A DNA stretch of 29,800 nt from a virus (taxonomy: Duplodnaviria > Caudoviricetes), in IMG/VR virus record IMGVR_UViG_3300010220_000080, positions 1 to 29,800 of that record; one strand, written 5' to 3'. The stretch's first letter is position 1, and each line of letters begins with the position of its first letter. Positions 4,328-29,800 of the stretch are shown here, piece by piece. Under the pieces are notes generated by a model. That model saw nothing but the letters and a program-made list of their open reading frames with translations. It did no database searches and was not told where the DNA came from. The translations under genes were made by a program, and so were the position numbers.

Positions 4328-5362
4328 ATGGGCAGGGACTACGCAGAAGCGATCGCGGCAAGCGGCCTTACGATCTACGATCCGATTGAGATTGGTGACC
4401 CAGAGCTATGGGTCCCAACACCTGAACTCGAAGCTATGCTCGACGAGAGACTGCGCGGCATCAGCCTTGCTGGTCTGGCGCTTCGGACACGATCCAAAGT
4501 GGTCAAGGAAAGCGTGTGCCGCGCACTGGGCTACCCCGTGCCCCCGAGCTTCAAGAAAACACAGCCCCGCTTCCTCGGCCAAATGTTCGATACCTACGCC
4601 CAGAAGTCGAACAACCTACAGGTCTGGAACGAGGAGCTTTCCCCATCGCGGCGCTACGTGATCCTGCGGGTCGATGAGGCTGACCGGATTGCGCGGGTTA
4701 AGGTCGTGAACGGCGAAGAACTCGCACAGCTTGATACCACCGGCACCTTGACGCAGAAATATCAGGCACGGCTTGTTCCGGGATCAGCATATGAGGAACT
4801 GGTTTCTCCGACCGACACCGATGCCCTTCTACCCCACACCCGGGCCGGTGCGAACCTGGCCCAGACTGTCAGCCCGATAGACCACCCGGCGCACGGACTG
4901 CTCCTGCCCATTGGCGAGGTTTTCGAGCGGCTGCGCGGAGCAGTTGGCAGGTCCTTCCCTGATGCTGGCTGGGATCAGGAGCGCAACAGGGGTGCAGCGC
5001 TGCACCGCATCGTGTGCGAACTTCTGGGCTATGCCGACTACCGCGACGATGGGCGTTTCCCCGATGTTCGGAACCAGCTGCTGGAGGTCAAGCTGCAGAC
5101 CTCGCCAACCATCGACCTGGGGTTGGTGAGACCGGCCAGCGAGGAGCCGCTGGACGTACCGCAGGTCGCCGGAACGCAGGTCCGCCACTGCGACGTTCGC
5201 TATGCCCTGTTTTATGCCCAGACGGATGGGGCTGAAGTGACGCTGACCCACCTGTACCTGACGACAGGTGCGAGCTTCTTCTCGCGCTTCCCGCAATTTG
5301 GCGGCAAGGTCCTCAACAAGAAGCTCCAAATTCCGCTGCCGTCAGACTTCTTCGACAGGTAG
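4328..5362 (+). CDS. Type II restriction endonuclease (PD-(D/E)XK), partner of the adjacent N6-adenine MTase
   Basis: FPDVRNQLLEVKLQ gives a PD..EVK catalytic motif. Convergent with the MTase, overlapping it by 21 nt. Confidence 0.75.
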   Translation: MGRDYAEAIAASGLTIYDPIEIGDPELWVPTPELEAMLDERLRGISLAGLALRTRSKVVKESVCRALGYPVPPSFKKTQPRFLGQMFDTYAQKSNNLQVWNEELSPSRRYVILRVDEADRIARVKVVNGEELAQLDTTGTLTQKYQARLVPGSAYEELVSPTDTDALLPHTRAGANLAQTVSPIDHPAHGLLLPIGEVFERLRGAVGRSFPDAGWDQERNRGAALHRIVCELLGYADYRDDGRFPDVRNQLLEVKLQTSPTIDLGLVRPASEEPLDVPQVAGTQVRHCDVRYALFYAQTDGAEVTLTHLYLTTGASFFSRFPQFGGKVLNKKLQIPLPSDFFDR

Positions 5363-7036
5363 GCCGAACGCGGCCCATACCATCCGGTCAATCCGCCGCT
5401 CAAGGGCTGGGTCTGGGCCATCGGCCAGCCGGGCGTATAGGTCACGGCAGGCGGCCACAATCTCAAGTGCGCCGCTGCTGTCGGGGTCAGGGAGTGGGAA
5501 TTGCTCGACATACTGCGTGATGAACCGCCGCCGCCCCGCATAGAGCTTGTTGTTGAAACGGAGGTCGTAGAAGCGCTCGATGAAGGTGGAGTTGGCCACG
5601 CCCACCGCGAGCCACAACAGGTCCTCTTCCCCAGTCAGCCAATAGCAGTCGCCGTTTACAACCGTCCCCTCAAGGTCCATCCAGAAGGTGGGCTGCTCGG
5701 AAATGTCCCGGAACACCAGCTTCGGCCCGGGCCAGTCCGCCGGGTTCTGCGGCACCCAGATTTCATACCACTGCCGCCCGGCCTCAATCACATAGCTGCG
5801 GTCCTCAAGGGTCTTCCGGTGCTGTTCAAGGTAGGCGAAGCTTGCCGGGTACTGCGACAGGTCCACGGCCTGCTTTTTTCCGTCAACCGCGTGGTGCGGA
5901 TACAGGACCAGCCGGTTGTGTGGCTCGGGCCGGAAGCGCCGCGCGGTGTGGTGCGTCGTCAGGGGTCGGTGCAGCTCTAGCTCTCGGTCCCAGCTCTTGG
6001 GCAGAAACACCTTGTCGGCGCATGTCTTGATCCCGACCCTAATCTTTCCAATGTCGCGGAAGGTGCCCCAAGCGTGCTTTTCCACGGTTGCAAGCCAGCT
6101 TTCCACGCCTGCCGATGCCAGCCGCCACACCCCGGCAGGGTTCCCGCCCGTGTCCAGCGTCCCGTGTTGAACAAGGAAGGTCCGGCCATCGGGAACAGCC
6201 ACCGTGCCATGTTTTCCGAGGGCTTCTATTGGGTCAGCGGCTGTGTGCGCGGGCTCGTCCTTTGTCTGATAGATTGTCAGGAAGGACGGTGTCGCTGGCT
6301 CCGCCCCTGCGCCCCGTGCGATCAGCACGGCAGGCAGCACGGCAGCATCGAACAGCTTTGTGTCGCCCAAGTCATAGACTTCGCGCAGCCGGAGGCCGGT
6401 CATCATCCCGGCGCGGGCGGATGCGCCGCCCTTGGTCGTCATGAAGCGGTTTGAGACGATGAAGCCAGCCGCGCCGTCCGGTGCCAAGACTGTTGCCATG
6501 CCGAGCAGAAAGGCGTGGTACAGGTCCACGCGCCCGGTCAGCCCGAATTGCTGGGCGAGTTGGCGGGCACGGTCAGCCCCTATGATCTGTGTGCGCACAT
6601 AGGGCGGGTTGGCAATGATGAGGTCATAGGTTTCTTCCGTGCCGAAAAGACCGCCCGCGAAGTCGTCAAGGACATGGTCTAGGAAGCTCCCGAGGCGGAG
6701 GTTGAGAACGGCCCGCGGGTGCTCGCGCGACAGGCGCTCGCGCGCTTCTGCTAGCGCCAAGGGGTCGGTCTCGAAGCCAAAGACTTCGACTGGCCCATCA
6801 ATCCGGTCCAAAAGGGCGAGGAGCAATTCGCCGTGGCCAACCGCAGGGTCCAGGACCCGGGCAGCCCGTCCCGATGGCAGGTTGGCAGTTGCCGCAATGC
6901 GGCCAGCGACGAAATCGGCAAGAGCCCGAGGGGTGTAGGTCACGCCGTCAGATTTGGCCTCGTCAACGTCGCCATAGCGTTTCGTGAACCTCATCGCCTC
7001 TGTCACTGGCTCGCCTCGTTCTTTTATTGTTCTCAT
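5342..7036 (-). CDS. Type II N6-adenine DNA methyltransferase, gamma class, resembling M.BseCI/M.BanIII (ATCGAT group)
   Basis: GVTYTP, VLDPAVGHG (motif I), IIANPPYVRTQ (motif IV), GRVDLY, SNRFMTTKGG, DLGDTKLFDAAVLP. These match the M.BseCI sequence as I recall it. Start codon uncertain (7036 or slightly downstream). Confidence 0.88.
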   Translation of the reverse strand: MRTIKERGEPVTEAMRFTKRYGDVDEAKSDGVTYTPRALADFVAGRIAATANLPSGRAARVLDPAVGHGELLLALLDRIDGPVEVFGFETDPLALAEARERLSREHPRAVLNLRLGSFLDHVLDDFAGGLFGTEETYDLIIANPPYVRTQIIGADRARQLAQQFGLTGRVDLYHAFLLGMATVLAPDGAAGFIVSNRFMTTKGGASARAGMMTGLRLREVYDLGDTKLFDAAVLPAVLIARGAGAEPATPSFLTIYQTKDEPAHTAADPIEALGKHGTVAVPDGRTFLVQHGTLDTGGNPAGVWRLASAGVESWLATVEKHAWGTFRDIGKIRVGIKTCADKVFLPKSWDRELELHRPLTTHHTARRFRPEPHNRLVLYPHHAVDGKKQAVDLSQYPASFAYLEQHRKTLEDRSYVIEAGRQWYEIWVPQNPADWPGPKLVFRDISEQPTFWMDLEGTVVNGDCYWLTGEEDLLWLAVGVANSTFIERFYDLRFNNKLYAGRRRFITQYVEQFPLPDPDSSGALEIVAACRDLYARLADGPDPALERRIDRMVWAAFGLPVEEV

Positions 7037-13760: not shown

Positions 13761-14864
13761 ATGGCCACGATCCGCAAACGCACGCTGCCCTCGGGCCTTG
13801 TCCGGTGGCAGGTGGACTTCACCGACCAGGCGGGCAAGCGGCGGTCCAAGCTGTTCCCGCGCCGCAAGGATGCGGATGTGTATCTGGTCAAGGTCCGCTC
13901 GCTGGTGGCCAACCACACCTATCTGGCCGACAGCGACAGCACGACGGTGGCCGATGCCGCAAAGGCTTGGCTCGACCATTGCGAGGTGCGCTGCAAGACA
14001 GGGCGGCGGATGGAGCGGTCCACCCTGCGAGGCTACAGCGACTATGTGCGCCTGCACATCACCGCGCCCGAGATCGGCATCGGGGATAAGCTGATCGCCC
14101 AACTGACCCGCCGCCATGTCAACGAGTTCCGCGACCGGATGCTGCTGAACGGGCGGTCCGAACATCTGACCCGGCGCGCGCTGTCGGTGCTGAAGCTCGC
14201 GCTGGACCACGCCATCGACAATGGCCAGTTGTTCACCAATGCCGCGCAGGGTGTGCGAGTGATCAAGTCCAGCCGGATCGAGCACAAGGCCCCGGTGCCG
14301 ACCAAGGAGGCGATCCGCGCCCTGATCGAGGCGGCCGACGAGGATTTCAAACCGCACCTGATCGTCTCGGCCCTCGGCGGCCTGCGCGCCTCCGAACTGC
14401 GGGGACTGCGCTGGACGGATGTGGATTTCGACAAGGGCTTCATTCACATCCGCCAGCGCGCCGATGCCTACAACCAGATGGGCGAGCCGAAATCGCGGGC
14501 CGGGTTCCGTGACATCCCGGCAGGGCCGATGGTGCTGAACGCCCTGCGCCGCTGGAAACTGCGCTGCCCGAAGAACGCCCTCGATCTGGTCTTCCCCGCG
14601 CCGCAGGGTGGAATCTTGCAGCACACCAAGACACAGGCCCGGTTCCGAAAGTTGCAGGAAAAGGTCGAGGTGACCATGCGCTGGCACGACCTGCGCCACT
14701 TCGCCGTGTCGCTCTGGATCGAGCAGGGCTTCTCGATCAAGGAGGTGATGACCTTCGCGGGCCACTCCTCGATTCAGATGACCATGGAACGCTACGGCCA
14801 CCTGTTCCCCTCGCCCGACCACCAGAAGGCCATGGCCATGGTCGAGGCGAAGCTGCTAGGATAA
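13761..14864 (+). CDS. int: Tyrosine recombinase / phage integrase
   Basis: N-terminal arm-binding region. Catalytic set GLRASE (R), PKS (K), HDLRH, GHSS, RYGH (Y). RBS GGAGGG upstream. Confidence 0.95.
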   Translation: MATIRKRTLPSGLVRWQVDFTDQAGKRRSKLFPRRKDADVYLVKVRSLVANHTYLADSDSTTVADAAKAWLDHCEVRCKTGRRMERSTLRGYSDYVRLHITAPEIGIGDKLIAQLTRRHVNEFRDRMLLNGRSEHLTRRALSVLKLALDHAIDNGQLFTNAAQGVRVIKSSRIEHKAPVPTKEAIRALIEAADEDFKPHLIVSALGGLRASELRGLRWTDVDFDKGFIHIRQRADAYNQMGEPKSRAGFRDIPAGPMVLNALRRWKLRCPKNALDLVFPAPQGGILQHTKTQARFRKLQEKVEVTMRWHDLRHFAVSLWIEQGFSIKEVMTFAGHSSIQMTMERYGHLFPSPDHQKAMAMVEAKLLG

Positions 14865-15935: not shown

Positions 15936-17282
15936 TCATATCGCTTCGAAAAGCGCGCTGCCGTGATGGTCAGGTGCTTCCTGCGCGCTTTCACGCGCCA
16001 AGCAATCCATAACGAGCTGCCGAAGGGCCTCCCTGTGATCTCGCTGTTTGCCGGCGAGGTCTTGAGTGGCCACGATCAGCGACTCATACGCGCCCCTTGT
16101 CGCGATGGAGTACCGCCGGCGGATCGGATCTGGCGGCAGCTCGCCATGATGGGGATATAGCAGTACGACGTTCGGGCAGTCGTAGAGCCTGCCATATGCC
16201 ATCAGCTGGTACACGTCCGTCTGGCTGACCCCCTGCTTTGGATCGTCGATCCGTGGCGTCATGCGCTTCCACTTCGTGTCGATGATCAGCGCGATCTTCT
16301 CGCCCTGCCGGACGATGAGGTCGGGCCTTGTGCGGAAGCGGCCGGTCTCGCCCTCGTAGAGACAATCCTGATGGCCGCCTTGCGACGACACACGGAAGCC
16401 CGTGCCGGCCAGAGCACGCGACAGGGTCCGTTCGATGTATGCTTCGAACAAGACGTTCATCTCGAAGAGTAGCGCGTGACCGTCGATGGTCCCCGCGCTC
16501 GTCTGCTGGTGCCGGTCCGATAGAAAGAGGCGCGCGAGAGACAGGAGATCCCGCCAACGACGATTGGTGCGGTCCAGGACGATCCGGTCCCAGCGGAGGG
16601 CGTTCGGAGGAACGTCGGCTACGTCGGCGTACACGAAGGTTAGCTCGCGCAGCGCGCGCTGGTTATCCGGAGCACCGGACAGACGCGACAGCTTGCTGAC
16701 CGCCGCCCGCATGACCTGATTCAGGGCTATGTCCGGCGATAGAGCATCGAAACGACATGCGAGCTTTTGTGGCGAGACCGCGAGCGTCGAGAACTGCCGT
16801 GTCACGTCCAGGCGTCCCCGAAGCGAAGGCAAGTCGTCTTCGTGTTCGAGGTAGTGGCGCGGCATCCCTTGGCGGACCGCGTCGATGAGCTTCGCACAGA
16901 ACAGACGGATCAGAAGTTCGAGCACGGTCTCGCGCTGCCAGCCAAGCTGCGTCATCGCGCCGGCTTCGATTGGCAGATCGTAGGTCACCGCAAGCATGTG
17001 GATGAGGCGCTGCCTGAGTACCGCATCCGACACCCCGCTCTCGCCGCCCCCTTCGATTTTTGGGAGAATCTCCAGTTGGCAGTCGGGGGTGGCAATGACG
17101 CCGACGACTCCACGTGCTCGGAGCCCCTTCCGCCCGTGTTCCAGAACACCCTCACCCCCGCGCCCGGAGAAGGTCGACGTCCTCGCAACCGCGGCAAGCC
17201 GATCAGCCTGCGTCTCCGGGATCTCGGTGTCGCCGGACCCGTAGGCGATGCGCTCCCACTCGCGGATCGTGCGGCGGATCAT
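15936..17282 (-). CDS. mcrC: McrC family restriction endonuclease subunit
   Basis: LEILPKI, LRGRLDV, LFEMNVLFEAY, RPDLIV..IIDTKWK, DVYQLMAYG, LLYP. ATGA-coupled to mcrB. Confidence 0.92.
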   Translation of the reverse strand: MIRRTIREWERIAYGSGDTEIPETQADRLAAVARTSTFSGRGGEGVLEHGRKGLRARGVVGVIATPDCQLEILPKIEGGGESGVSDAVLRQRLIHMLAVTYDLPIEAGAMTQLGWQRETVLELLIRLFCAKLIDAVRQGMPRHYLEHEDDLPSLRGRLDVTRQFSTLAVSPQKLACRFDALSPDIALNQVMRAAVSKLSRLSGAPDNQRALRELTFVYADVADVPPNALRWDRIVLDRTNRRWRDLLSLARLFLSDRHQQTSAGTIDGHALLFEMNVLFEAYIERTLSRALAGTGFRVSSQGGHQDCLYEGETGRFRTRPDLIVRQGEKIALIIDTKWKRMTPRIDDPKQGVSQTDVYQLMAYGRLYDCPNVVLLYPHHGELPPDPIRRRYSIATRGAYESLIVATQDLAGKQRDHREALRQLVMDCLARESAQEAPDHHGSALFEAI

Positions 17283-19789
17283 GTCCCGACCAACTTGCTG
17301 TAGTCGAAGCCCTCATCGACGGATCGAACCTGCCAGCGAAACCGGGCGACAGCATCGCCGTCCTCGAGGCCCGGAGGCGGGTTCAGGACCGTACGCTTGA
17401 GAAAGCCACCGGTGATCGAACCCTCACCCGGTTCCAGGTCGCCGAGCACGGCCGCGATCTTGGCCCAGTCTTCGAAGAAGTATTCCGCGAGGAGAGGGAT
17501 GACCTTGTGGCGCATGACCTCGTCGACATCTGCTTGCGAACTGCACGCAGTGAAGTAGGCGTGTCCGATCTGGTGTTCGCGGTCGTAGAGATACTCGATC
17601 CGCTCGTTGATCGTGGCGAGAAGTCGCGGCAGGTCGATCCCGCATTTCTGGCCAGCGTCTTTGAGGATGGATGCATCAGGCATCATTTCACGGAACGTGA
17701 ACCGGCGCCGGAGTGCAGTGTCGAGAAGCGCGATCGACCGGTCGGCGGTGTTCATGGTGCCAAGGATGTGCAGGTTGGACGGCACGCCGAATTCGTCCCC
17801 GGAATAGGGCAAGCGGACCCGCACCGCATTCGGCTGGTTGAGCCGCTTGTCGGCCTCGAGAAGGGTGATCAGTTCGCCGAAGACCTTGGAGATGTTCGCC
17901 CGGTTGATCTCGTCGATAATCAGAACGAACTGATCGGGCTCGTCACCCCCGTCGCTCCTCTGGCTGTTCATGTAGCGCTCGAGCGCCGGAATATTGAGCT
18001 CGCTGTCGTAGAGCAGATAAATAGACTGCTGCATGAAGCCGCGGTTGTAGATCTCGCTGACCGCTACCCCGTCACGATCCACCCAAAGCCATCGCACCGC
18101 GCGACGGTGGGCATAGCCCCCTTCCGGCCGTGGCTTGAACTCGTAATCGCCGACGAACTCCCCGATGGCACGGAACTGCTGGTTTCCCTTCGATACGATC
18201 ACGATGTCGCCTTGCCGGACCCAGTTCCGGAACCGAAAGGGCATCTGCACCCATCCGGATCTTGCATCTATGTCGCCGCCGCCGTCTCGGTGGTCCTTGC
18301 AGGCCTCGAAGATCGCCTCCCGGCTGGCGTACTTCTCATCGCTCCAGTCGATGTCGTCGAAGCCGAGGAGTGTGTAACCGCCCTCTATCGCTTCCTCGAA
18401 CAAGTGCGCGTCGTCAGGGTTGTTCGCTTCGCCGATCGACATCTTGAAGACCTGGCGGCCCTCCAGCTTGATCATGTCATCGCCCGATGAGCGTCCACGG
18501 CTGGTCTCCGCGCGCTTCGCGATCCGCCTGAATATTCCGTGGACCGTTTCGAGCCGGAAGCCGGCCGACTCCGCCTCAGCTTCGCCGTCCGCCCCGGTCA
18601 TGGGCTGCCGACCTTCGACAAAATCCTCGTAGGCCATCGACTGGTGGAATGTGACGAACTCGATGCGCCCGGCCGCCACAAGCCTCTGGTAGGCCGCCAT
18701 GAGCTCGGCCCGATCCTGGGGGACCGGCTCGCCGCACAGGCGCACTGCCTCGGCCGCGGTGGAGAAGGTTTTCCCGGTGCCGGGCGGCCCGTAGAGAATG
18801 AGGTTCATAGGGCTGAATCCCTTCTGGATCTTGCCGTCAGCAGCGCGACTATCGTCAGCGCTGCTCGTTCCATTCACGCCGCCACGTGGGGGAACACCGA
18901 TTGCCTGAGCAATCTCCGGAGAGAGCTCATAGCGAATAAGCTTGTCGCCGCCGTAGGTCAGGTAATTGACGGGTCCGCCGGCGATCGCCTTGACCCGTGA
19001 CGCGAGGCCGTCGACGAGCATCGCCCGTGCGACATCGACGATGTCCTCCGTCTCGATAGCCTCATCCGCTTTGTTCCCGGCGCCTCGCGGCTTGATCCGA
19101 TATGCCGATACTCCGCTGCTGCGGTTGTAGTTCCTGACAGGCTGAAAAGGGGCACCCGTCGCATCGAAAAGGACAAAGGGGCGGCTGTCATCGGACTGAA
19201 CAGTTTCATCAAGCTTGAAGCGGAACACCGTGGCTGAGCTTTGGTCGGCCCCGATCCGTTCGGGCTCTGGGAGCTGCGCCATGTCCTGGAACATCCGTCC
19301 GGCCAGAGCTTGGCAGATATTCGGCCAGGCCTCTTTGAGCCCAAGTGCTGCGTTCACGTCGCGGACGAGCACGTCGACGTGGTCGCGACCTCCCTCACGC
19401 GCGGGCTCGATGTAGTGCTCGAGTACGTATTGCCGTATCCGATCAGCGTCCTTGGCTGCTCCCGGAGGGTCACCCGCCAGGAACCGCCCGTACTGCCCCA
19501 ACCAGCTACCCCAGTTGGAGAGCCTGTTGTGGGGATTGTCGGAGTCCGGCATGAGGATCCGGTAGTCCTGGCCGCCTGTTCGGGCATCCTCACGCATCTT
19601 GCGCAGACGCTCGCGCAGCGCCTCGAACCTGTCAGCTTCCCATGCCTCGTCGAGATCCCGATGAGGCATTCCAAGTGCCGCAAGATTTCGCTCGATGGTT
19701 CGGATCGCGTAAGCCCGCGAATTGCGGCCCGCTTCTGTCTGAGCTCCGCCTTGCTCAAGCCATGTCTTGAATTCGTGTTCTTTCGTCAT
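17279..19789 (-). CDS. mcrB: McrB family AAA+ GTPase with several extra domains (836 aa)
   Basis: NLILYGPPGTGKT, FVTFHQSMAYEDFVEG, IIDEINRANISKVFGELITLLE, MNTADRS (NxxD), ALRRRF, IGHAYF. Confidence 0.93.
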   Translation of the reverse strand: MTKEHEFKTWLEQGGAQTEAGRNSRAYAIRTIERNLAALGMPHRDLDEAWEADRFEALRERLRKMREDARTGGQDYRILMPDSDNPHNRLSNWGSWLGQYGRFLAGDPPGAAKDADRIRQYVLEHYIEPAREGGRDHVDVLVRDVNAALGLKEAWPNICQALAGRMFQDMAQLPEPERIGADQSSATVFRFKLDETVQSDDSRPFVLFDATGAPFQPVRNYNRSSGVSAYRIKPRGAGNKADEAIETEDIVDVARAMLVDGLASRVKAIAGGPVNYLTYGGDKLIRYELSPEIAQAIGVPPRGGVNGTSSADDSRAADGKIQKGFSPMNLILYGPPGTGKTFSTAAEAVRLCGEPVPQDRAELMAAYQRLVAAGRIEFVTFHQSMAYEDFVEGRQPMTGADGEAEAESAGFRLETVHGIFRRIAKRAETSRGRSSGDDMIKLEGRQVFKMSIGEANNPDDAHLFEEAIEGGYTLLGFDDIDWSDEKYASREAIFEACKDHRDGGGDIDARSGWVQMPFRFRNWVRQGDIVIVSKGNQQFRAIGEFVGDYEFKPRPEGGYAHRRAVRWLWVDRDGVAVSEIYNRGFMQQSIYLLYDSELNIPALERYMNSQRSDGGDEPDQFVLIIDEINRANISKVFGELITLLEADKRLNQPNAVRVRLPYSGDEFGVPSNLHILGTMNTADRSIALLDTALRRRFTFREMMPDASILKDAGQKCGIDLPRLLATINERIEYLYDREHQIGHAYFTACSSQADVDEVMRHKVIPLLAEYFFEDWAKIAAVLGDLEPGEGSITGGFLKRTVLNPPPGLEDGDAVARFRWQVRSVDEGFDYSKLVGT

Positions 19790-19837
19790 TCACAGATCGC
19801 GATTTACCAAGTTCAATAAGTGAAGACGGTGACCACG

Positions 19838-21013
19838 TCACCGCAATGGTTCAGTGCCTCGACTGAGGATGCTCAAGTAGTCGCTGTACACATACATCCG
19901 GCCGCGCTGTTTCCCCGTCACCTCCCGCACGATGCCGAGATCCTCCAGATGCTGGATCGACTTCGCAATTGTCGGGGGCGAGATGCTCAGCCGCTGCGCC
20001 GCCGCGGGAATGCCGATGATCGGCTTCTGCTGAAGCAGCTGGTGAACCCGGAGGGCGGATGCGGCCGGGCGTCCGAGATCCTCGATCCGGTGCCGATCAG
20101 CTTCGAACAGTGCGAGGATCTCGCGCGCCGCCTCGGACGCCTGCAGAGACGTCTCGGCGATGCCGTCGAGGAAGAACTCCAGCCATGTCTCCCAGTCGCC
20201 ATTCTCGCGGACCTGTTGCAGCAGGTCGTAATACTGGCGGCGATGTGTCTTGAAGTAGAGGCTGAGATAGAGGATCGGCTCCTTCAGGATCCCCTGCGTG
20301 CAGAGCAGAAAGGTGATCAGCAGGCGGCCGAGGCGTCCGTTTCCGTCGAGGAACGGATGGATGGTCTCGAACTGCACATGGACCAGCCCTGCCTTGATGA
20401 GGGTCGGCATCTCCGGCGTGTCGGTATGGATGAACGCCTCCAGGTCCGACATGAGGTCGAGGACGTTCTCGGGGGGCGGAGGTACGAAGAGCGCATTGCC
20501 CGGCCGCGTTCCGCCGATCCAGTTCTGCGAACGTCGGAACTCTCCCGGCTGCTTCGTGCTCCCGCGTCCCTTTTCGAGAAGGATGGCGTGGATTTCCCGG
20601 ATCAGGCGCAGGGAAAGCGGAAAGCCCTCGCGGATCCGGTCGAGGCCATGGTTCATGGCGGCGACGTAGTTGGAAACCTCCTGCACGTCGTCGAGCGGGA
20701 CGCCTGGCGCTTCCTCGCTCTCGAACAGCAGGAGATCGGAGAGCGACGATTGCGTGCCCTCGATCTGCGAGGATAGCAGCGCCTCTTTGCGGACGTACAT
20801 GTAGAGGAAGAGCGGGGTGTCAGGCAGGATGGAGGTCACGCCATCGAGCCGGCCGATCGCGCGGTTCGCGCGCTCGAGCTGACGGTAGAGCCGGTCCATC
20901 CTGACGGGCGGCGCCGGCGGCAAGGGTGGAGGCACGAACGCCTCTGCGCGTTCGCCTGCGGTCGAGATGGCCACGCGCTGACCCAACCGTGATGGCTCCG
21001 GTGCTAACGCCAT
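19838..21013 (-). CDS. Class II Fic protein with C-terminal HTH (391 aa)
   Basis: Fic motif HPFLDGNGRLGR, inhibitory motif SSQIEG, C-terminal wHTH ending GIVREVTGKQRGRMYVY. Start set at MALAPE. Confidence 0.92.
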   Translation of the reverse strand: MALAPEPSRLGQRVAISTAGERAEAFVPPPLPPAPPVRMDRLYRQLERANRAIGRLDGVTSILPDTPLFLYMYVRKEALLSSQIEGTQSSLSDLLLFESEEAPGVPLDDVQEVSNYVAAMNHGLDRIREGFPLSLRLIREIHAILLEKGRGSTKQPGEFRRSQNWIGGTRPGNALFVPPPPENVLDLMSDLEAFIHTDTPEMPTLIKAGLVHVQFETIHPFLDGNGRLGRLLITFLLCTQGILKEPILYLSLYFKTHRRQYYDLLQQVRENGDWETWLEFFLDGIAETSLQASEAAREILALFEADRHRIEDLGRPAASALRVHQLLQQKPIIGIPAAAQRLSISPPTIAKSIQHLEDLGIVREVTGKQRGRMYVYSDYLSILSRGTEPLR

Positions 21014-21175: not shown

Positions 21176-21961
21176 ATGGGACATCAGCGCCTCGGAAAAC
21201 TCCCCACCCACCGATACCTGCCGGACATCGTCAGGTATCTGGTGACCGGTGGCGCACCCACCGCGCCGCTGGTGGAACAGGTGACCGAAGTCAGTCGGGA
21301 CGCGCTGAAGCACGCGCTGAGGGACCCTGTCTTCGTGGAAGCGTTGTGGCTGCTCATCAGGTTGCCGCAGGCCGCTGCGTCGAAGGATTTCGGGGCAGCC
21401 CTCGCCGACATTGGCATGGGAGCGCGACCGCCGACTTCGGTGACTGAACTGATGGTCGCCTACAACAGCGCACTTGAGCGCGTGCAACGGCGTGTCCATG
21501 CGGGAGCGACGGACCTTGGCGACATCGCCCGCGAGGCGGGAGCCGCCGCGCTCGCTGAGGCCGTGGAGGCGGGCATGCCGATGTGGTCCCCAACTGCTGC
21601 CGATGTGCAGGCTTCAGTGGCGGCGCTGAGGTCACCGGAGAAATTCGGCGCCCTGGCCCACCATTTCCACGCAAACATCGTGGAACGCGTCATCCACTAT
21701 TACGTCGATCGAAACTTGCACAAGCTCGTCGGCGCCGATCGCGTTGCGCGGTCTGTCCATGATCTCGGGACGTACAATTCCGCGATACGCCGTCACTGCA
21801 TCGAGGCTGCGCTGATCATGCGCGCCTTCGCCAGGGACTGGCTTGGCAAGAACCAGTACCGGGACGGCAAGGACATATCGAGGGATGACGCCCGCCGCTT
21901 CTCGGCCTTCGCCGTCGATAAGATTGGGAACGAACTCAAGAACAGGAAGGGGCCAAAGTGA
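21176..21961 (+). CDS. Hypothetical helical protein beginning MGHQRLG, a QatB-like positional partner of the QueC-family gene
   Basis: 261-aa ORF, GTGA-coupled to the QueC-like gene. QatB likeness rests on size, position and Gly2 only. Confidence 0.75.
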   Translation: MGHQRLGKLPTHRYLPDIVRYLVTGGAPTAPLVEQVTEVSRDALKHALRDPVFVEALWLLIRLPQAAASKDFGAALADIGMGARPPTSVTELMVAYNSALERVQRRVHAGATDLGDIAREAGAAALAEAVEAGMPMWSPTAADVQASVAALRSPEKFGALAHHFHANIVERVIHYYVDRNLHKLVGADRVARSVHDLGTYNSAIRRHCIEAALIMRAFARDWLGKNQYRDGKDISRDDARRFSAFAVDKIGNELKNRKGPK

Positions 21962-23820
21962 AACGATGCCTGATCGAATGCGGCGTGCCGCAGGCATCCG
22001 AGGCCGATGCGCTCGCGATGAACGTCAGCGAGCCCGGCAAGAACGTCAATCTCAGGATCGACTACATCAGCCGCTCGATGATCGGGAACATTCCCGACCT
22101 GTTGATCGACCTCCTCGAGGTGGCGGCCTACGTGTACTGCGCCGATCAGCGCATTGCACGTGGGTCCGCCATGCTCACGAACTTCGGGGAAGACTGGCGC
22201 CGCAGTCTGACCTTCTCGATTCCCGTACGTCACCCTGAGGTCTGGCAGCGTGCAGATGTGCAGGAGCTCCTCCTCGATACGCTCGGGTTCCTGTCCGACG
22301 ACAGCTATGAGTTCAGTTTCCGCAAGGCGGAAGCGCCCGTGCAGCCGCGAGAGCTGTATTTTCCGGAGCTTCTCGAAGCCTTCCAGGAAAACGATGAGGT
22401 GGCGCTCTTCTCCGGCGGTGTCGATTCCTTTGCCGGTGCTGTCAACGACATCGTCACTCACGGCAAGTCGGTAACCCTCGTCGGTCATTACTCGTCAACG
22501 AAGGTACGAAACGTTCAGGAAGAGCTTATCCGCGATCTGAAACAGCGCGGATATGAAAAGCGGGTCTCCTACGTTCCCGTATGGGTCTCGAATGAGGTCG
22601 CCAAGCCCGTCGAGTTCACGCAGCGGACCCGCTCGTTTCTGTTTGCCTGTCTCGGTCTCGTCGTGGCGAAGATGTCGGGCAAGGACGGGTTCAGCTTCTA
22701 TGAGAATGGGGTTGTCAGCATCAACCCGCCCCTGGCGGGCGACGTGGTCGGCGGCCGCGCGACGCGCACGACGCATCCCAAGGTTCTCCGCGGGTTGGAG
22801 GCGCTGTTCTCGACCCTGCTCGACAGTGAGATTGAGATCCGTACTCCGCTTCAATGGCTGACCAAGAAAGAGGTCACCCAGAAGATCGCCGATGCGGGCG
22901 TTGCGGACATGCTTGCCGCCACGGTGAGTTGCACGCGGCCGCGCAGCTGGACGGTCAAGCAGAAGCACTGCGGGCTCTGTTCGCAGTGCATCGACAGGCG
23001 GTTTGCCATCTTGGCTGCAGGACTGGAACAGTATGAACCGCCCCAGAACTACAAGCGCGACCTCCTCCTCGGGGATCGCAGCGCGGACGATGAGTTGCGA
23101 ATGGCTCTTAGCTATGTCGCGTTCTTTCGGGACGTCGCCGGAATGCCGAAGGCGCGTTTTCTTTCTGGGTTCCAGCAGGTCATTTCCGCGCTCGATCACT
23201 TCCCTGATCTGTCAGTCGACGAGGCAGGATCACGCCTGTTCGAGCTGTTTCAGCGGCATGCGCGCTCGATAGAAGAAGTCATTGCCAAGGCGCTCATCGA
23301 GCATGGCGACCGGCTTTACAGGGGTGAGGTTCCGCCTGGTTCGCTTCTGGCGACTTGCTTCACTCGAGACCATGTCGAGATCGCGCCGGAGTCCGACTAT
23401 GATCGGCAGGCCACCGATTTCGTCGACAGGCTCAGTGCTCCCGTTCTCGAGTTCGCGGTGGATCACGATGCCGACCAGGTGCTCTTCCATGGCGGGCATC
23501 TTCTCGAAGGTGCCAACTACCGCTTCGTGAACGCGCTGATCGAGAATTTCCGGAAGGCCAAGCGGACGCGCTCGGAGGTCCAGTTCATGCCACCTCACGA
23601 TGTGGCGGACAAAATAGGCGTATCCGAGCAGTCGATGCGCCAGCAACTGCGCAGGTTGCGAGACGCGCTCGACCCGCTGGCGGTGATGCTCGGGATCCCG
23701 CTCGATCAGGACAGTTTCATCGAGACCAAGGATCGCGCTGGCTACCGCCTCAACCCGGCATGCCGTGAGATCTCCCTCGGCGACATTGAGGCTCCGAATC
23801 CGGCTGCGTCACAGGAATAA
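21958..23820 (+). CDS. QueC-family (QatC-like) PP-loop enzyme fused to a C-terminal winged-helix DNA-binding domain (620 aa)
   Basis: QatC-type N-domain (DLLEVAAYVYCAD...WRR...IPV..P..W), PP-loop LFSGGVDS, RTRSFLF, ENGVVSINPPL, RTTHP, Zn site SC...HCGLCSQC. C-terminus DVADKIGVSEQSMRQQLRRLR...FIETKDRAGYRL. Confidence 0.85.
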   Translation: MKRCLIECGVPQASEADALAMNVSEPGKNVNLRIDYISRSMIGNIPDLLIDLLEVAAYVYCADQRIARGSAMLTNFGEDWRRSLTFSIPVRHPEVWQRADVQELLLDTLGFLSDDSYEFSFRKAEAPVQPRELYFPELLEAFQENDEVALFSGGVDSFAGAVNDIVTHGKSVTLVGHYSSTKVRNVQEELIRDLKQRGYEKRVSYVPVWVSNEVAKPVEFTQRTRSFLFACLGLVVAKMSGKDGFSFYENGVVSINPPLAGDVVGGRATRTTHPKVLRGLEALFSTLLDSEIEIRTPLQWLTKKEVTQKIADAGVADMLAATVSCTRPRSWTVKQKHCGLCSQCIDRRFAILAAGLEQYEPPQNYKRDLLLGDRSADDELRMALSYVAFFRDVAGMPKARFLSGFQQVISALDHFPDLSVDEAGSRLFELFQRHARSIEEVIAKALIEHGDRLYRGEVPPGSLLATCFTRDHVEIAPESDYDRQATDFVDRLSAPVLEFAVDHDADQVLFHGGHLLEGANYRFVNALIENFRKAKRTRSEVQFMPPHDVADKIGVSEQSMRQQLRRLRDALDPLAVMLGIPLDQDSFIETKDRAGYRLNPACREISLGDIEAPNPAASQE

Positions 23821-23913
23821 TCCGCCGACGTCACAGGCCACCACGCGCAAGGTCACGATCTGCCCAGCAAAGCCCCGTTTTTCGGGGCTTTTTTCTTGTC
23901 CGCACGTCACAAG
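23807..23913 (+). promoter_or_regulatory. Phased GTCAC direct repeats, putative wHTH operator
   Basis: GTCAC at 23808, 23830, 23852 (22-bp period) and 23906. CGTCACAGG is identical in the first two copies. Confidence 0.6.
23869..23894 (+). terminator. Rho-independent terminator after the QueC-wHTH gene
   Basis: AAAGCCCCG-TTTTT-CGGGGCTTT followed by further Ts. Confidence 0.8.
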
Positions 23914-24023
23914 AAAGTCCGGGCGTGATCATTTATTCGAGGCCGTAAAACACTGAAATTGTTCGCATATCCGGGCGCATCAACGTGCCGGGGTGAACAA
24001 CGGACAACTCAATGAGGTTTCGG

Positions 24024-24233
24024 ATGTCTGTCACGCATCTCAACCAGGCCGAGCTGGCAGCTCGATGGAAGATCAGCCCGCGCACGCTGGAGCGCTGGCG
24101 TTGGACCGGTGAGGGCCCCGCCTTCATCAAGATCGGCGGCCGGGTCGTGTACCGGCTCGAGGATGTCGAGGCCTACGAGGCCAACCGGCACTGCTCGAGC
24201 ACGGCCGACAAGCCCGCCGTGAAGCTGGCGTGA
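24024..24233 (+). CDS. Small HTH_17/excisionase-like DNA-binding protein
   Basis: HLNQAELAARWKISPRTLERWRWTGEGPAFIKIGGRVVYRLEDVEAYE. GAGG RBS upstream. Confidence 0.9.
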   Translation: MSVTHLNQAELAARWKISPRTLERWRWTGEGPAFIKIGGRVVYRLEDVEAYEANRHCSSTADKPAVKLA

Positions 24234-24243
24234 GGGGGTGGCC

Positions 24244-24729
24244 ATGACGATCCCCAACCGCATCACCCTCGACGATCTGCCCTCCATGTCGATCGACGAG
24301 ATCCTTGCCCTTTCTGGTGAGCAACTGGCGCTCGCAGAGGACGAAGCCTGTGAGCGGCTGCGCGCCGCCAAGACTCTTTACGACTGGATCGTCGGGGCCA
24401 TCGCGCTGAAGTACGGCGACCAGGCGCAGGAGGCGCGCCGCGCGGAGGGCAAGGACACCGGCACCGTCCGGCTGGAGGACGGCCCGGTCACCGTGGTGGC
24501 GGAGCTCCCCAAGCGCGTGGATTGGGACCAGGTGATGCTCGCCGGTCTGGTCGAGCGCATCCGGGCCGATGGCGCCGATCCCGCCGAGTACGTCGACATC
24601 GCGTTCAGCGTGCCCGAGCGCAAGTACACCGCCTGGCCCAAGGACATCCGCCAGGAGTTCGAGCCCGCCCGCACGGTCCGGACGGCCAAGCCGAAGTTCC
24701 GGCTGCTGCTCGACGAGGAGGCGCGCTGA
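24244..24729 (+). CDS. Phage hypothetical protein of the recombination module
   Basis: In operon with an RBS, TGATG-coupled to the AAA_24 gene. Contains KRVDWDQ and SVPERKYTAWP. Confidence 0.8.
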   Translation: MTIPNRITLDDLPSMSIDEILALSGEQLALAEDEACERLRAAKTLYDWIVGAIALKYGDQAQEARRAEGKDTGTVRLEDGPVTVVAELPKRVDWDQVMLAGLVERIRADGADPAEYVDIAFSVPERKYTAWPKDIRQEFEPARTVRTAKPKFRLLLDEEAR

Positions 24730-25475
24730 TGGCCATCTCGCTCGCATCCCTGCAAACCTCGACTGTGCTGCGCCCGCCGCGCGTCCTGATCCATGGCGTC
24801 GCCGGCATCGGCAAATCCACCTTCGCCGCGTCCGCCGACGCGCCGGTGTTCGTCCTCACCGAGGACGGTCTCGGCAAGCTGCAGGTGCCGCATTTCCCGT
24901 TGGCGACGAGCTACGCGGAGGTCGCCGAGGCGCTCGACGCCCTGCTTGACGAGGACCACCCCTATTCGACGGTGGTTGTCGACAGCGTGGACTGGCTGGA
25001 GCCGCTGATCTGGGCCGAGGCCTGCCGGCGCAACGGCTGGCAGTCGATCGAAAGCCCCGGCTTCGGCAAGGGCTACGCCGAGGCGCTGACCATCTGGCGC
25101 GAGTACATCGACAGGCTGAACGCGCTCCGCGACCGGAAGGGCATGGCGGTCATCCAGATCGCCCACACCGACATCAAGCGCTTCGACAGCCCCGAGCACG
25201 AACCCTACGACCGGTACGTGATCAAGCTGCAGGCACGCGCCTCCGCGCTGCTGCAGGAGCACTCGGACGTGGTGCTCTTCGCCAACTACCGGATCTCGGT
25301 CAGCAAGTCCGACGTCGGCTTCAACAAGAAGGTGACCCGGGCGCTCGGGTCCGGTGCGCGCGTCATGCACACCGAGGAGCGCCCCGCCTTTCTCGCCAAG
25401 AACCGTTACGGCCTGCCGGAAACCCTCCCGCTCGAGTGGTCGGAGTTCCTGGCCGCCATGCCCCAATCCGCCTGA
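24729..25475 (+). CDS. AAA_24 ATPase, Sak4-like phage recombination protein (248 aa)
   Basis: HGVAGIGKST Walker A, VVVDSVDWLE Walker B, GFGKGY, AKNRYGLP. Confidence 0.88.
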   Translation: MAISLASLQTSTVLRPPRVLIHGVAGIGKSTFAASADAPVFVLTEDGLGKLQVPHFPLATSYAEVAEALDALLDEDHPYSTVVVDSVDWLEPLIWAEACRRNGWQSIESPGFGKGYAEALTIWREYIDRLNALRDRKGMAVIQIAHTDIKRFDSPEHEPYDRYVIKLQARASALLQEHSDVVLFANYRISVSKSDVGFNKKVTRALGSGARVMHTEERPAFLAKNRYGLPETLPLEWSEFLAAMPQSA

Positions 25476-25497
25476 TTACGACTGAAAGGACAGCACG

Positions 25498-26004
25498 ATG
25501 GCACGTTTCGACACCGCCTTTGACGCCGCCGGCATCGAGCCCACCACCGCCTACGAGATCCTGCCCGCGGGCAAGTACCGCGCCCAGATCGTCGAGAGCG
25601 AGATGCGCGTCACGAAGAACGGGATGGGGAAGTATCTCTGGCTGATGCTCGACATCCTCGAGGGGCCGCAGCAGGGCCGCAAGGTCTTCGACCAGCTGAA
25701 CCTCGTGAACGCCAACCCGACCACGGTCGAGATCGCGCAGCGCACGCTGTCGGCGATCTGCCACGCCACGGGCAAGCTGCAGGTGAACGACAGCGAGGAG
25801 CTGCACCTGATCCCGATGACGATCCAGGTCGGCGTGAAGCCCCCGAAGGACGGCTACGGCGAGCGCAACACGATCCGCTACATGGTGCCGGAGGCCCCGG
25901 CGCAGGCGACCCCGCCGAGGTCCGCCGCGACGCAGCCGGCCAGCGCGCCCGCGCAGTCGGCGCCCGCCCGCCCGGCCACCGCGCCCTGGAACCGCAAGAG
26001 CTGA
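25498..26004 (+). CDS. DUF669-type phage single-stranded DNA-binding protein
   Basis: LPAGKYRAQI...GRKVFDQLNL, with a Pro/Ala-rich tail ending PW. Follows the Sak4-like ATPase. Confidence 0.82.
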   Translation: MARFDTAFDAAGIEPTTAYEILPAGKYRAQIVESEMRVTKNGMGKYLWLMLDILEGPQQGRKVFDQLNLVNANPTTVEIAQRTLSAICHATGKLQVNDSEELHLIPMTIQVGVKPPKDGYGERNTIRYMVPEAPAQATPPRSAATQPASAPAQSAPARPATAPWNRKS

Positions 26005-26070
26005 CGCCCTCGGCCGCCGCGGGCTGAGACCTGCGGCGGCGAGGACATCGCCAGACCCGAGAGACAGATC

Positions 26071-26436
26071 ATGACCAACATCACCGACGCGGCCTGCGTG
26101 GCCGCGAACGCCCCCGGCTTGCCCGACGACACCCGGCGCCTGATCGAGATCGAGGACGCCATCGCGAAGATCCGCACGCAGATCGCGACCGCCGATCTGA
26201 CGCGGCAGCGGACGGCGAAGCCGATCGACCCCGACTGGTTTCACCGCGCGCGCACGGCGCTGCGCCACCTCAATCGCGAGCGCGCCGAGATCGTGGCCCG
26301 TCAGGGCGGCCGCCGCCGGCGCGAACGGCTCAAGGACATGATCATCGCCGTACTCCGCGAACGCCATGACAGCGCCGCCTGGACCGCGGTGCTGGCAGAG
26401 GCGCGGGCGCGGCTCGAGCGGGAGGAGGCATGCTGA
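26071..26436 (+). CDS. Hypothetical coiled-coil phage protein (121 aa)
   Basis: In operon, stop overlaps the next ATG. Confidence 0.75.
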   Translation: MTNITDAACVAANAPGLPDDTRRLIEIEDAIAKIRTQIATADLTRQRTAKPIDPDWFHRARTALRHLNRERAEIVARQGGRRRRERLKDMIIAVLRERHDSAAWTAVLAEARARLEREEAC

Positions 26437-27380
26437 TGGCCGAGCTTCCCGAACCCCCGACGCCGACCCTCTCCGCGATCTACGCCTCCTTCGAGGCGCG
26501 GCAGGGCGACGGCTTCCGCGACCACCTCGGCGCCTCGCTCATCGGCAAGTCCTGTGCCCGTGCGCTCTGGTACGATTTCCGTTGGGCGACGCCCGCGCGG
26601 CACACCGGCCGCATCCTGCGCCTGTTCGAGACCGGTCAGCTGGAGGAGGCCCGGCTCGTCCGCGATCTGCGCGCCACCGGCGCGACGGTGCTGGAGGTCG
26701 ATCCCGAGACCGGGCGGCAGTTCCGCGTCGAGGCCCATGGCGGGCATTTCGGCGGCTCGCTCGATGCGGTCGCCCTCGGTCTGCTCGAGGCGCCGAAGAC
26801 CTGGCACGTCGTCGAGTTCAAGACGCATTCGGCGAAGAGCTTCGCCGAGCTGGTCGCCAAGGGCGTCGTGCTCGCCAAGCCCCAGCACGCCGCGCAGATG
26901 CAGGTGTACATGCACCTGACCGGCATCACGCGGGCGCTCTACGTCGCGGTCTGCAAGGACACCGACGCGCTGCATATCGAGCGCGTCCCGGCCGACCCCG
27001 CGATGGGCGAGCGCCTGCTGGAAAAGGCCCGGCGGATCATCTTCGCCCAGCACCCGCCCGAGCGGATCAGCGCGGATCCCGCCTGGTTCGAGTGCCGGTT
27101 CTGCGACCACCACGGGCTCTGCCACGGCGAGGATGCCGCGGCTGTCACCTGTCGGTCCTGCCTGCATTCGACACCGGTCGAGGGCGGTTGGCACTGCGCA
27201 CGTCACGGTCGGCAACTCGACCCTGCCGACCAGCGCCGCGCCTGCGCCCGGCACCTGTTCATCCCCGATCTCGTCCCCGGCGAGGTGAGCGACGCAGGCG
27301 AGGACTTCGTCTCCTACCGCATGCGCGACGGCTCGGCCTGGACCAACGACGCCCGCGAAAAGGAGGTCGCCTCATGCTGA
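26436..27380 (+). CDS. Cas4-like PD-(D/E)XK phage exonuclease
   Basis: HLGASLIGKSC, GSLDA, VVEFKT, AQMQVYM, CRFC...C cluster. GGAGGAGG RBS. Confidence 0.85.
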   Translation: MAELPEPPTPTLSAIYASFEARQGDGFRDHLGASLIGKSCARALWYDFRWATPARHTGRILRLFETGQLEEARLVRDLRATGATVLEVDPETGRQFRVEAHGGHFGGSLDAVALGLLEAPKTWHVVEFKTHSAKSFAELVAKGVVLAKPQHAAQMQVYMHLTGITRALYVAVCKDTDALHIERVPADPAMGERLLEKARRIIFAQHPPERISADPAWFECRFCDHHGLCHGEDAAAVTCRSCLHSTPVEGGWHCARHGRQLDPADQRRACARHLFIPDLVPGEVSDAGEDFVSYRMRDGSAWTNDAREKEVASC

Positions 27381-29113
27381 CCCTGCGCCCCTACCAGCAG
27401 GCCGCGATCGCCTCGATCTACGGCTATTTCGAGAAGGAGAGCGGCAACCCGCTCGTCGTGATCCCCACGGCCGGCGGCAAGAGCCTCGTCATGGCCGCCT
27501 TCATCGACGGCGTGCTCAAGGCCTGGCCCGACCAGCGCGTGCTCGTCGTCACCCATGTCCGCGAGCTGATCGCGCAGAACCATGCCGAGATGCTGGGGCT
27601 CTGGCCCGAGGCGCCGGCGGGCATCTACTCGGCCGGGCTCGGCCGCCGCGACGCGCGGGCCCGGATCCTCTTCGCCGGCATCCAGTCGATCCACGACAAG
27701 GCGACGCGCATCGGCCATGCCGATCTGGTGCTGATCGACGAGGCCCATCTGATCCCCGGGCGGTCGAACACCATGTATCGCCGCTTCCTCAATGACCTGC
27801 AGGCGATCAACCCGGCGCTGAAGGTGATCGGGCTGACGGCGACGCCCTTCCGGCTCGACAGCGGCATGCTGCACGAGGGCGAGAACGCGCTCTTCACCGA
27901 CATCGCCTACGAGGTGTCGGTCCGCGACCTGATCGATCAGGGCTATCTCTCCCCGCTCATCTCGAAGCAGACCAAGACCCGCCTCGACGTGACCGGCGTG
28001 GGATCGCGCGGCGGCGAGTTCATCGCGCGCGATCTCGAGGACGCGGTCGACCAGGACGCCATCACGCGCGCGGCCGTGGCCGAGGTGATCGCCCATGGCG
28101 AGACGCGCCGGTCCTGGCTCGCCTTCTGCTCGGGCGTCCGCCACGCCACCCATGTCGCCGAGGAGTTCCGCCGCCGCGGGGTGAGCTGCGCCACCATCTT
28201 CGGCAAGACGCCGAAAGACGAGCGTGACGCGATCATCGCCGCCTTCAAGCGCGGCGAGATCAGGGCGCTGGCCTCGATGGGCGTGCTGACGACGGGTTTC
28301 AACGCGCCGGCCGTGGATCTGATCGCCATGCTGCGGCCCACCAAGTCGGCCGGGCTCTACGTCCAGATGGCCGGCCGGGGCACGCGGCTCGCCGAGGGCA
28401 AGCAGAACTGCCTCGTCCTCGATTTCGCGGGGAATGTCCGCCGGCATGGCCCCATCGATCTCGTGCGGCCGAAGCGGCCGGGTGGTCCGGGCGACGGGCC
28501 GCCACCCACCAAGATCTGCCCGAAATGCGGGACCATCGTGGCCATCGCCGCGCTCGAATGCCCCGACTGCGGCTTCGAGTTCCCCGGCCGCGAGGTGAAG
28601 CTCGAGCCGACCGCCTCGACGCTGGAGGTGCTGTCCACCGGCAAGCCGCAATGGGTCGGCGTCACCGACGTCACCTTCAGCCGCCACGAGAAACGCGGCG
28701 GGCGGGTCTCGCTGAAAGTCACCTACCGCTGCGGTCTCGCCTTCCACACGGAATGGGTCTGCTTCGAGCACGAGGGTTATCCGGGCCGCAAGGCCGCGAG
28801 CTGGTGGCGCGAGCGGGCGCCCGAGCTGGAGGTGCCCGAGTCCGTCGACGAGGCGCTTCTGCTGGCGGATCGGCTGCGCCGCCCCACCGAGATCGCCGTC
28901 CGCCCCGCGGGCCGCTTCACCGAAATCACCGCCTACAGGTTCGCCCCATGCCTTACAGCCGTGCCGGGCTCTGCGCCGTCTGCCATCGAGAACCCCGCGG
29001 CTGGGGCTGGTTCGACGCGCGCTTCCGCGTCTCCGACCCGCGGCGCGACACGAGCCGCAGAGACCTCTGCAGCCGGGTTTGCCAGGACATCTGCCACCGG
29101 AGGTCGGGCATGA
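27374..29113 (+). CDS. SF2 DEAH helicase with Zn finger (RadD/YejH-like phage helicase, 579 aa)
   Basis: LRPYQ, PTAGGKS, IDEAH, GLTATP, LTTGFN, QMAGRGTR, CPKC..CPDC. AGGAGG RBS. Confidence 0.92.
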   Translation: MLTLRPYQQAAIASIYGYFEKESGNPLVVIPTAGGKSLVMAAFIDGVLKAWPDQRVLVVTHVRELIAQNHAEMLGLWPEAPAGIYSAGLGRRDARARILFAGIQSIHDKATRIGHADLVLIDEAHLIPGRSNTMYRRFLNDLQAINPALKVIGLTATPFRLDSGMLHEGENALFTDIAYEVSVRDLIDQGYLSPLISKQTKTRLDVTGVGSRGGEFIARDLEDAVDQDAITRAAVAEVIAHGETRRSWLAFCSGVRHATHVAEEFRRRGVSCATIFGKTPKDERDAIIAAFKRGEIRALASMGVLTTGFNAPAVDLIAMLRPTKSAGLYVQMAGRGTRLAEGKQNCLVLDFAGNVRRHGPIDLVRPKRPGGPGDGPPPTKICPKCGTIVAIAALECPDCGFEFPGREVKLEPTASTLEVLSTGKPQWVGVTDVTFSRHEKRGGRVSLKVTYRCGLAFHTEWVCFEHEGYPGRKAASWWRERAPELEVPESVDEALLLADRLRRPTEIAVRPAGRFTEITAYRFAPCLTAVPGSAPSAIENPAAGAGSTRASASPTRGATRAAETSAAGFARTSATGGRA

Positions 29114-29334
29114 TCGATCCGACCCCCAATGAGACGGCGGCCATGGTCGAGGGCGGCAAGGCCGGCGGCGCCTATCTCGACAGCCTCGGCCGGACCGATC
29201 TCGCCCTGCTCACCGAGGAGGAGTGGGACACCTTCGTCGAGGTGATCGTCACCGGCTACTGCGACCACCTGCGCGACCTGGCGGCGAAGGACCGTGCCCG
29301 GCTCGACGGCATGATCCCGGAGGTGCCCTTCTGA
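28948..29334 (+). CDS. DUF6511-like small phage protein (alternative start 29110)
   Basis: CAVC...CSRVCQ then MIDPTPNETAAM...GGAYLDSLGRTDLA. Stop coupled to the primase ATG. Confidence 0.7.
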   Translation: MPYSRAGLCAVCHREPRGWGWFDARFRVSDPRRDTSRRDLCSRVCQDICHRRSGMIDPTPNETAAMVEGGKAGGAYLDSLGRTDLALLTEEEWDTFVEVIVTGYCDHLRDLAAKDRARLDGMIPEVPF

Positions 29335-29800
29335 TGGCGGACACCTCGTGGATGGCGCGCGTGGGCGCGCGTCTCGTGACCAACGGCTACGCGATCCTGC
29401 CGATCGCGCCCGGCACCAAGAAGCCCGGCCAGTTCGCCCGCGCGGCCTGGCACGACTACCCGCAGTGGAACCGGCATGCGAGCCGCGCCACGACCGAGTT
29501 CGAGGTCGCGACCTGGTCGACCTGGCCTAGCTGCGGCGTCGGGATCGTCGGCGGCGCGGTCGCCGCGCTCGACATCGACGTCGCCGAGGATGGCGAGCTT
29601 GCGCTGCGCATCGAACGACTGGCCCGCGAGCGGCTGGGCGACACGCCCGCGCTCAGGATCGGCAAGGCACCGAAGCGGCTGCTGGTCTATCGCACGCGAG
29701 AGCCCTTCGCCGGGATCCGGCGCGCGCCGCTCGAGGTGCTCTGCCTCGGACAGCAGTTCGTGGCCTATGCCAAGCATCCCGACACCGGCCAGCCCTATGC
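29334..29800 (+). CDS. Primase-polymerase N-terminal domain (partial, runs off the window)
   Basis: Translated by hand: MADTSWMARVG...NGYAILPIAPGTKKP...GVGIVGG..AALDID...RIGKAPKRLLVYRT...GQQFVAY..HPDTGQPY. Confidence 0.88.
   Translation, partial: MADTSWMARVGARLVTNGYAILPIAPGTKKPGQFARAAWHDYPQWNRHASRATTEFEVATWSTWPSCGVGIVGGAVAALDIDVAEDGELALRIERLARERLGDTPALRIGKAPKRLLVYRTREPFAGIRRAPLEVLCLGQQFVAYAKHPDTGQPY

Follow-up and report, generated by a model that had tools for sequence, protein, structure and literature searches.

A QatBC-like gene pair with a fused winged helix before the early operon of a prophage

The virus record IMGVR_UViG_3300010220_000080 (Duplodnaviria; Caudoviricetes) was analysed as a 29.8-kb stretch of DNA, termed here the window. 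Two overlapping genes on its plus strand encode a QatBC-like pair: a small helical protein, and a QatC-like enzyme that is joined to an OmpR/PhoB-type winged helix. An earlier reading of the sequence alone had pointed to this pair, and the observation itself is confirmed. The pair belongs to a widespread and apparently undescribed sister family of QatBC, which probably shares the QatBC chemistry and is wired to transcription control of prophage early genes.

The named records with the closest copies (94–96% identity) come from Pseudotabrizicola, Plastorhodobacter, Tabrizicola, Rhodobacter and Gemmobacter; the copy of Pseudotabrizicola algicola is 96% identical. The relative G779, whose enzyme is 74% identical, has terminase, portal, capsid and tail genes in continuation of its early operon. 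The carrier is therefore a lambda-like tailed prophage, of a Rhodobacteraceae-type host.

The two genes of the pair

Gene 1 (positions 21176..21961, plus strand) encodes an all-helical protein of 261 amino acids with the N-terminus MGHQRLG; it is the putative partner of the enzyme, with Gly2 as the putative acceptor. The protein has a QatB-like fold and is encoded directly upstream of the enzyme, as in qatABCD. At the sequence level there is no match between gene 1 and QatB, and the family, which comprises 999 clusters at 50% identity, escapes QatB profiles. All 121 aligned sequences have Gly2, and 132 of 150 distant matches also start with it. The qatABCD partner carries an MGTS motif on a tail of 30–90 residues; gene 1 has MGH and a short tail, its first helix beginning at residue 15.

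Gene 2 (21958..23820, plus strand) encodes 620 amino acids. Residues 1 to about 470 (21958..23367) are QatC-like, with an N-terminal extension, a QueC core and a C-terminal helical extension. This assignment is reached by three routes: profile (PADLOC QatC, E 2.3e-57), sequence comparison with a solved QatC, and fold (Foldseek match to 9y01_B, E 2e-20). The score against the NCBIfam QatC profile is 213.5, which is below the cut-off of 280. Every QatC motif named in PMC13329287 is present. The pyrophosphate-binding loop SGGVDS is formed by residues 152–157 (22411..22428), and the zinc site consists of C325, C338, C341 and C344 (22930..22989), all four invariant in 43 sequences. T269-R-T271 (22762..22770) aligns with the QatC threonine pair, at the place where a Tyr/Asp pair reads 7-carboxy-7-deazaguanine (CDG) in QueC and Cap9 (PMC13279940). 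The YxD motif for CDG recognition, characteristic of canonical QueC and of Type IV CBASS (anti-phage signalling based on cyclic oligonucleotides), is thus missing, and TxT, or SxT/TxS, takes its place in all 25 family enzymes examined.

In a quick tree, for which the thorough search was unfinished and one row was dropped, a long branch with a support of 100 separates 25 family enzymes from seven canonical QatC proteins. More than 100 full-length homologues, of 600–630 amino acids, are present among the best 120 matches. Broken copies also exist (L006, L008 and L080); in L006 (5849–8563), gene 1 and a Fic gene are inverted relative to the truncated gene 2.

The window pair lies outside qatABCD. 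A KAP NTPase (qatA) was found neither among the scanned open reading frames of the window nor in any of 50 related viral records (14–83% complete), with the control positive in 10 of 14 genomes. The TatD nuclease (qatD) is likewise found in none of those 50 records, with the control positive in 14 of 14, and an HTH_17 gene follows the pair instead. No member of the CD-NTase or Cap10 (TGT-like) families was detected among the scanned window reading frames. Canonical QatC loci have an MGTS QatB upstream in seven of seven cases, and in six of the seven the downstream gene, judged by eye, is presumably TatD-like. In PMC13329287, qatA and qatD are reported beside only about one-third of the QatC cluster, which leaves room for the family of the window pair; the text consulted gives no description of it.

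The winged helix, the GTCACA boxes and the early-operon slot

The sequence-only reading had placed a winged helix at the C-terminus of a QueC-family enzyme, and residues 496–601 (23443..23760) do adopt a fold similar to that of OmpR/PhoB DNA-binding domains. This winged helix recurs behind a receiver domain in P0412, a 13-member cluster with 57% identity over residues 482–610. P0412 is one of 29 shorter matches, and the remainder are fragments of the QatC fusion.

The tails of related enzymes vary. A metagenome scan gave 32 complete enzyme reading frames, of which seven short or broken ones were left out. Among the other 25, there are 13 longer tails with a helical insertion, three winged helices of the window type, two canonical Trans_reg_C domains, one domain of the sibling regulators described below, three DpnII/MboI nucleases and three other tails. 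Boxes of the form GCTAC-N7-GTAGC are present in the locus of 13/13 enzymes with the helical-insertion tail versus 0/12 with other tail types. Taken with the receiver fusion, the varied tails point to inputs and outputs that shuffle independently, as expected for signal-transduction modules. The DpnII/MboI-type nuclease fusions are in L316, L321 and L333, and neither box type is found there. In the GCTAC-type clade, L061 (8782–9079) has a lone gene for a LexA DNA-binding domain before gene 1, with a TTGACCTGAT-n3-ATCAGGTCA palindrome.

Between the winged helix and the early operon of the window there are four boxes, all on the plus strand. GTCACA box 1 (23808..23813) is within the last codons of gene 2, and GTCACA box 2 (23830..23835) and GTCACG box 3 (23852..23857) follow at successive distances of 22 bp. 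A hairpin and T run resembling an intrinsic terminator (23869..23897, plus strand) part the pair from the operon. GTCACA box 4 (23906..23911) is 54 bp past box 3, agrees with TTGACA at four of six positions and probably occupies the −35 position of the early promoter. A TGnnnATAT-like element (23926..23935, plus strand) is 18 bp past box 4, and its columns are invariant in 25 sequences; it is the candidate extended −10, and a scan with the sigma-70 consensus gave no match there. A further conserved element (AAnCCnTTGAAAAT...ATAT) is found downstream, at 23948–23965, where the leader of the early transcript presumably lies.

The intergenic DNA diverges, and the parts that are kept are the GTCACA boxes, the terminator hairpin and the TGnnnATAT element. 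GTCAC was counted 174 times across 53 distinct intergenic stretches, versus 11 times on the opposite strand and 12.5 ± 3 times in 30 shuffles; spacings of 22 bp are found 52 times and of 54 bp 39 times. For the window itself, one of 2000 shuffles reaches four boxes, with a motif picked after inspection. In L057, a single case, TGTCAGA is the sequence of all three boxes, and a different recognition helix is predicted as well. DUF2924 and serine-recombinase genes are inserted between pair and operon in some loci, a separation of ∼4 kb, and there the boxes remain at the HTH_17 promoter: GTCACA boxes in L050 and, in the second tail type, GCTAC boxes in all 22 loci of a closely related set. The direct repeats before the operon are thus conserved, and they co-vary with the type of domain that is predicted to bind them.

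The early operon begins with an excisionase-like HTH_17 gene (24012..24233, plus strand). It continues on the same strand (24244..29113) with genes for a phrog_2480 protein, a Sak4-like AAA_24 protein, a DUF669 protein, which we take to be similar to single-stranded DNA-binding proteins, a small open reading frame, a PD-(D/E)XK exonuclease and a superfamily 2 helicase. The start of a Prim-Pol primase gene (29223..29800, plus strand) is cut by the contig end.

A survey of this slot covered 93 loci, including the window. The window-type winged helix is present in 62 of these, a set that was not dereplicated, and in 60 of the 62 HTH_17 is directly downstream, mostly at 191–204 bp. The linkage persists down to 39% enzyme identity. 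In the two exceptions, HTH_17 is displaced (L050) or does not occur within 10 kb (L003). As a control, 59 viral loci were collected by way of a downstream gene. The five control loci with the QatC–winged-helix fusion, all of them records seen before, contain the box array (5/5), versus 0/54 loci without the fusion. Of the 54 fusion-less loci, 37 have another family of C-terminal winged-helix-like proteins and different repeat sequences, many with an HTH_17 that is 94–99% identical; the other 17 have neither, and 10 of these are too short to tell.

Other regulators can occupy the same slot. L171, from the control set, has an S24 cI and, divergent from it, a small gene. Three further loci, L398–L400, have CCATCAC repeats together with genes for a response regulator and a histidine kinase or kinase-like protein. 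Repressor-like genes are present upstream of related units, namely the LexA DNA-binding domain in L061 and XRE with IrrE in L131. The link to the downstream prophage operon, proposed from the window alone, thereby gains strong comparative support from synteny, conserved boxes and slot exchange with other regulators.

The prophage-encoded two-component system of L398 (1441–3347) and L399 (2874–4774), located before the early operon, has as its kinase-like component a HEAT-repeat protein with no obvious membrane sensor. The sibling regulators are unannotated (L120 1993–2937, L127 599–1786 and L159 4429–5112). They consist of either a pair of genes, of 390 and 314 amino acids, or one gene of 227 amino acids, which share a terminal winged-helix-like domain (a match of 96.8% when the two types are compared by profile). 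CCTCCC or ATCCCC repeats precede HTH_17 in these loci, and XRE and IrrE genes are upstream in some.

Known systems, proposed mechanism and rival readings

With the qatABCD core (PDB 9y01/9y02, 9zee, 9vlk) the window pair shares the B-then-C gene order, translational coupling, Gly2 and the helical fold of the partner, and with QatC itself the fold with both extensions, the PP-loop, the TxT pair and the zinc site. It differs in having no qatA or qatD, in its MGH start and short tail as opposed to MGTS, in the separate enzyme clade, in the fused DNA-binding (rarely nuclease) tail and in a fixed seat, with cognate boxes, in the prophage control region. Cap9–CdnD of Type IV CBASS (PDB 9nto) is also a QueC-family enzyme with a partner that has a conserved Gly2; unlike that system, the window pair has no CD-NTase or Cap10/TGT, its enzyme is of the QatC type without the Tyr/Asp pair and its partner has a QatB-like fold. 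The winged-helix fold and the GTCACA-type direct repeats by the −35 region resemble those of OmpR/PhoB regulators. There is a likeness to two-component systems in that the domain also occurs behind a receiver and true kinase/regulator pairs are found in the same slot. However, gene 2 has neither an N-terminal receiver nor a cognate kinase, the receiver fusion being found only in relatives, and the input comes from a PP-loop enzyme that has a protein partner. The window repeats are 22 bp apart, whereas those of PhoB and OmpR are 10–11 bp apart. The seat before an excisionase/recombination/replication operon is that of cI/cro and XRE plus ImmA/IrrE switches, as L171 and L131 illustrate. Unlike these, the window unit has no S24 autopeptidase or metalloprotease, and control is apparently exerted through the enzyme-fused winged helix.

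Canonical QatB and QatC form a 1:1 complex in which Met1 is removed and Gly2 is in the active site, and catalysis is required (PMC13279940, PMC13639016, PMC13376578). Published QatC did not bind DNA (PMC13376578), and the terms HTH and transcription are absent from the main text of that paper. Full-text literature searches, with supplements and most subscription journals outside their scope, revealed no QatC–winged-helix fusion and no prophage-regulatory QatBC.

On balance it is probable that the pair is the signal-input and activator unit of the prophage, similar to a two-component system in which protein conjugation replaces phosphorylation. By analogy with published QatBC, the products of genes 1 and 2 would associate 1:1, the gene 1 protein would lose its Met1, and the enzyme would adenylate a small substrate, probably not CDG, and ligate it to Gly2. 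Ligation, or perhaps substrate binding, would turn the winged helix on. The active domain would bind the box at −35 as well as those spaced by 22 bp, and the excisionase/recombination/replication operon would be turned on, leading to prophage induction without a cI/S24 repressor in the slot. Comparative sequence data make it very likely that the winged helix binds the GTCACA boxes and controls the early operon, and most of this likelihood falls to its acting as an activator. Gating of the winged helix by the enzyme chemistry is considered quite likely, and the signal most likely belongs to the metabolites of phage infection or stress. The computed support consists of folds, motifs, synteny, box conservation and co-variation, and the replacement of the entire unit by other regulators.

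Perhaps the fusion protein is instead the prophage repressor, which would sit on the boxes, block the −35 and be released on modification of the partner. The overlap of box 4 with the likely −35, the lack of any other repressor beside the pair in the window and the cI-type repressor in the slot of L171 are in keeping with this. OmpR/PhoB proteins are mostly activators, however, and PhoB binds at the −35 position. The gene is also co-directional with the operon and ends at a terminator, unlike a cI/cro switch. Activation is preferred because of this insulating terminator, the position of box 4, the response regulators that occupy the slot in L398–L400 and the repressor-like genes that related units have ahead of them; repression is thus unlikely. 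The pair might also be mainly a stand-alone defence core of the QatBC type, with a secondary role for the winged helix, or with defence brought about by activation of early prophage genes that kill the infected cell or out-compete the invader. Such a defence role and the activator unit proposed here are not mutually exclusive. QatB and QatC are enough against lambda (PMC13279940), the catalytic motifs are all retained, three of 25 relatives have a nuclease tail, and SoFic, McrBC and a type II restriction–modification pair are nearby in the window. Yet defence cargo is usually mobile, and here it is the upstream neighbours that vary while the pair is fixed in position and orientation (60/62), is mutually exclusive with other regulators and has boxes that stay with the early promoter rather than with the pair. 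A primarily defensive role is therefore considered quite unlikely.

The sequence-only reading had suggested that the enzyme attaches CDG to Gly2, or senses CDG/preQ0 pools such as those from phages with deazaguanine in their DNA. The QueC fold and a Gly2 acceptor like that of Cap9/CdnD (PMC13376578) would suit such a role. The threonine pair of the family argues against it, as do the published results: QatC was inactive with CDG and with other deazaguanines (PMC13376578, PMC13639016), canonical QatC gives neither activity nor density with CDG (PMC13279940, PMC13639016, PMC13376578) and it fails to complement queC (PMC13329287). In addition, full-length canonical QueC was not seen in two of five host genomes and a QueD-type gene in one of five, weak observations since these are drafts. 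The threonines and the negative assays leave CDG sensing very improbable. That the pair is a decayed qatABCD remnant or a chance fusion is hardly credible. The sub-threshold NCBIfam score and the broken copies might suggest decay, but the many full-length homologues, the 999 clusters of gene 1, the well-supported clade apart from canonical QatC and the 0/50 counts for KAP and TatD, obtained with working controls, largely refute it through conservation. The module is thus borne out as stand-alone, and in the records examined the homologues do not routinely occur with qatA and qatD, the situation that the sequence-only reading had named as the mark of a remnant.

Surroundings of the pair and implications

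Upstream of the pair, at 15936–20974, are McrBC and a gene of the SoFic family. The N-terminal region of the McrB is long, and the protein also has a PDC-S02-like segment. The Fic gene is divergent from the pair, and it adjoins gene 1 in many close relatives too; upstream neighbours otherwise differ among relatives. A second element, in the opposite orientation, is present on the same contig at 5–14864. It has a tyrosine integrase (13761–14864, plus strand), a MerR-like helix-turn-helix protein, Prim-Pol, terminase small and large subunits, a portal and a protease–capsid fusion, with no tail gene in view, and may represent either a satellite that forms capsids or a second prophage. Between its terminase and portal genes is an insertion (4328–7036) of two convergent genes, for a type II restriction enzyme and its methyltransferase partner.

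The window pair raises the question of whether QatBC-like pairs are a general signal-transduction module, the protein-conjugation counterpart of two-component systems. Such a generalisation is tentative, with chances a little short of even. The PP-loop enzyme would ligate an infection- or stress-derived molecule to the N-terminal Gly of its partner and thereby turn on the fused output domain. Across many prophages, the output would be one of four or more winged-helix activators that can replace one another and that each have a DNA box of their own, and in a minority it would be a nuclease; anti-phage qatABCD would be one branch of the module.

Three structure papers of 2026 leave open which substrate QatC ligates to QatB and how an output arises. 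The fusion offers a candidate output, the winged helix, and a candidate target, the box array before the prophage early operon. A simple promoter reporter could screen for both trigger and substrate, and if the proposed wiring is correct, the promoter boxes would be a direct reporter in the search for the QatC substrate. The pair would then add a class of prophage induction switch that is interchangeable with cI/cro and two-component systems, and it would provide an SOS-independent route of induction, which may let the prophage sense an incoming phage.
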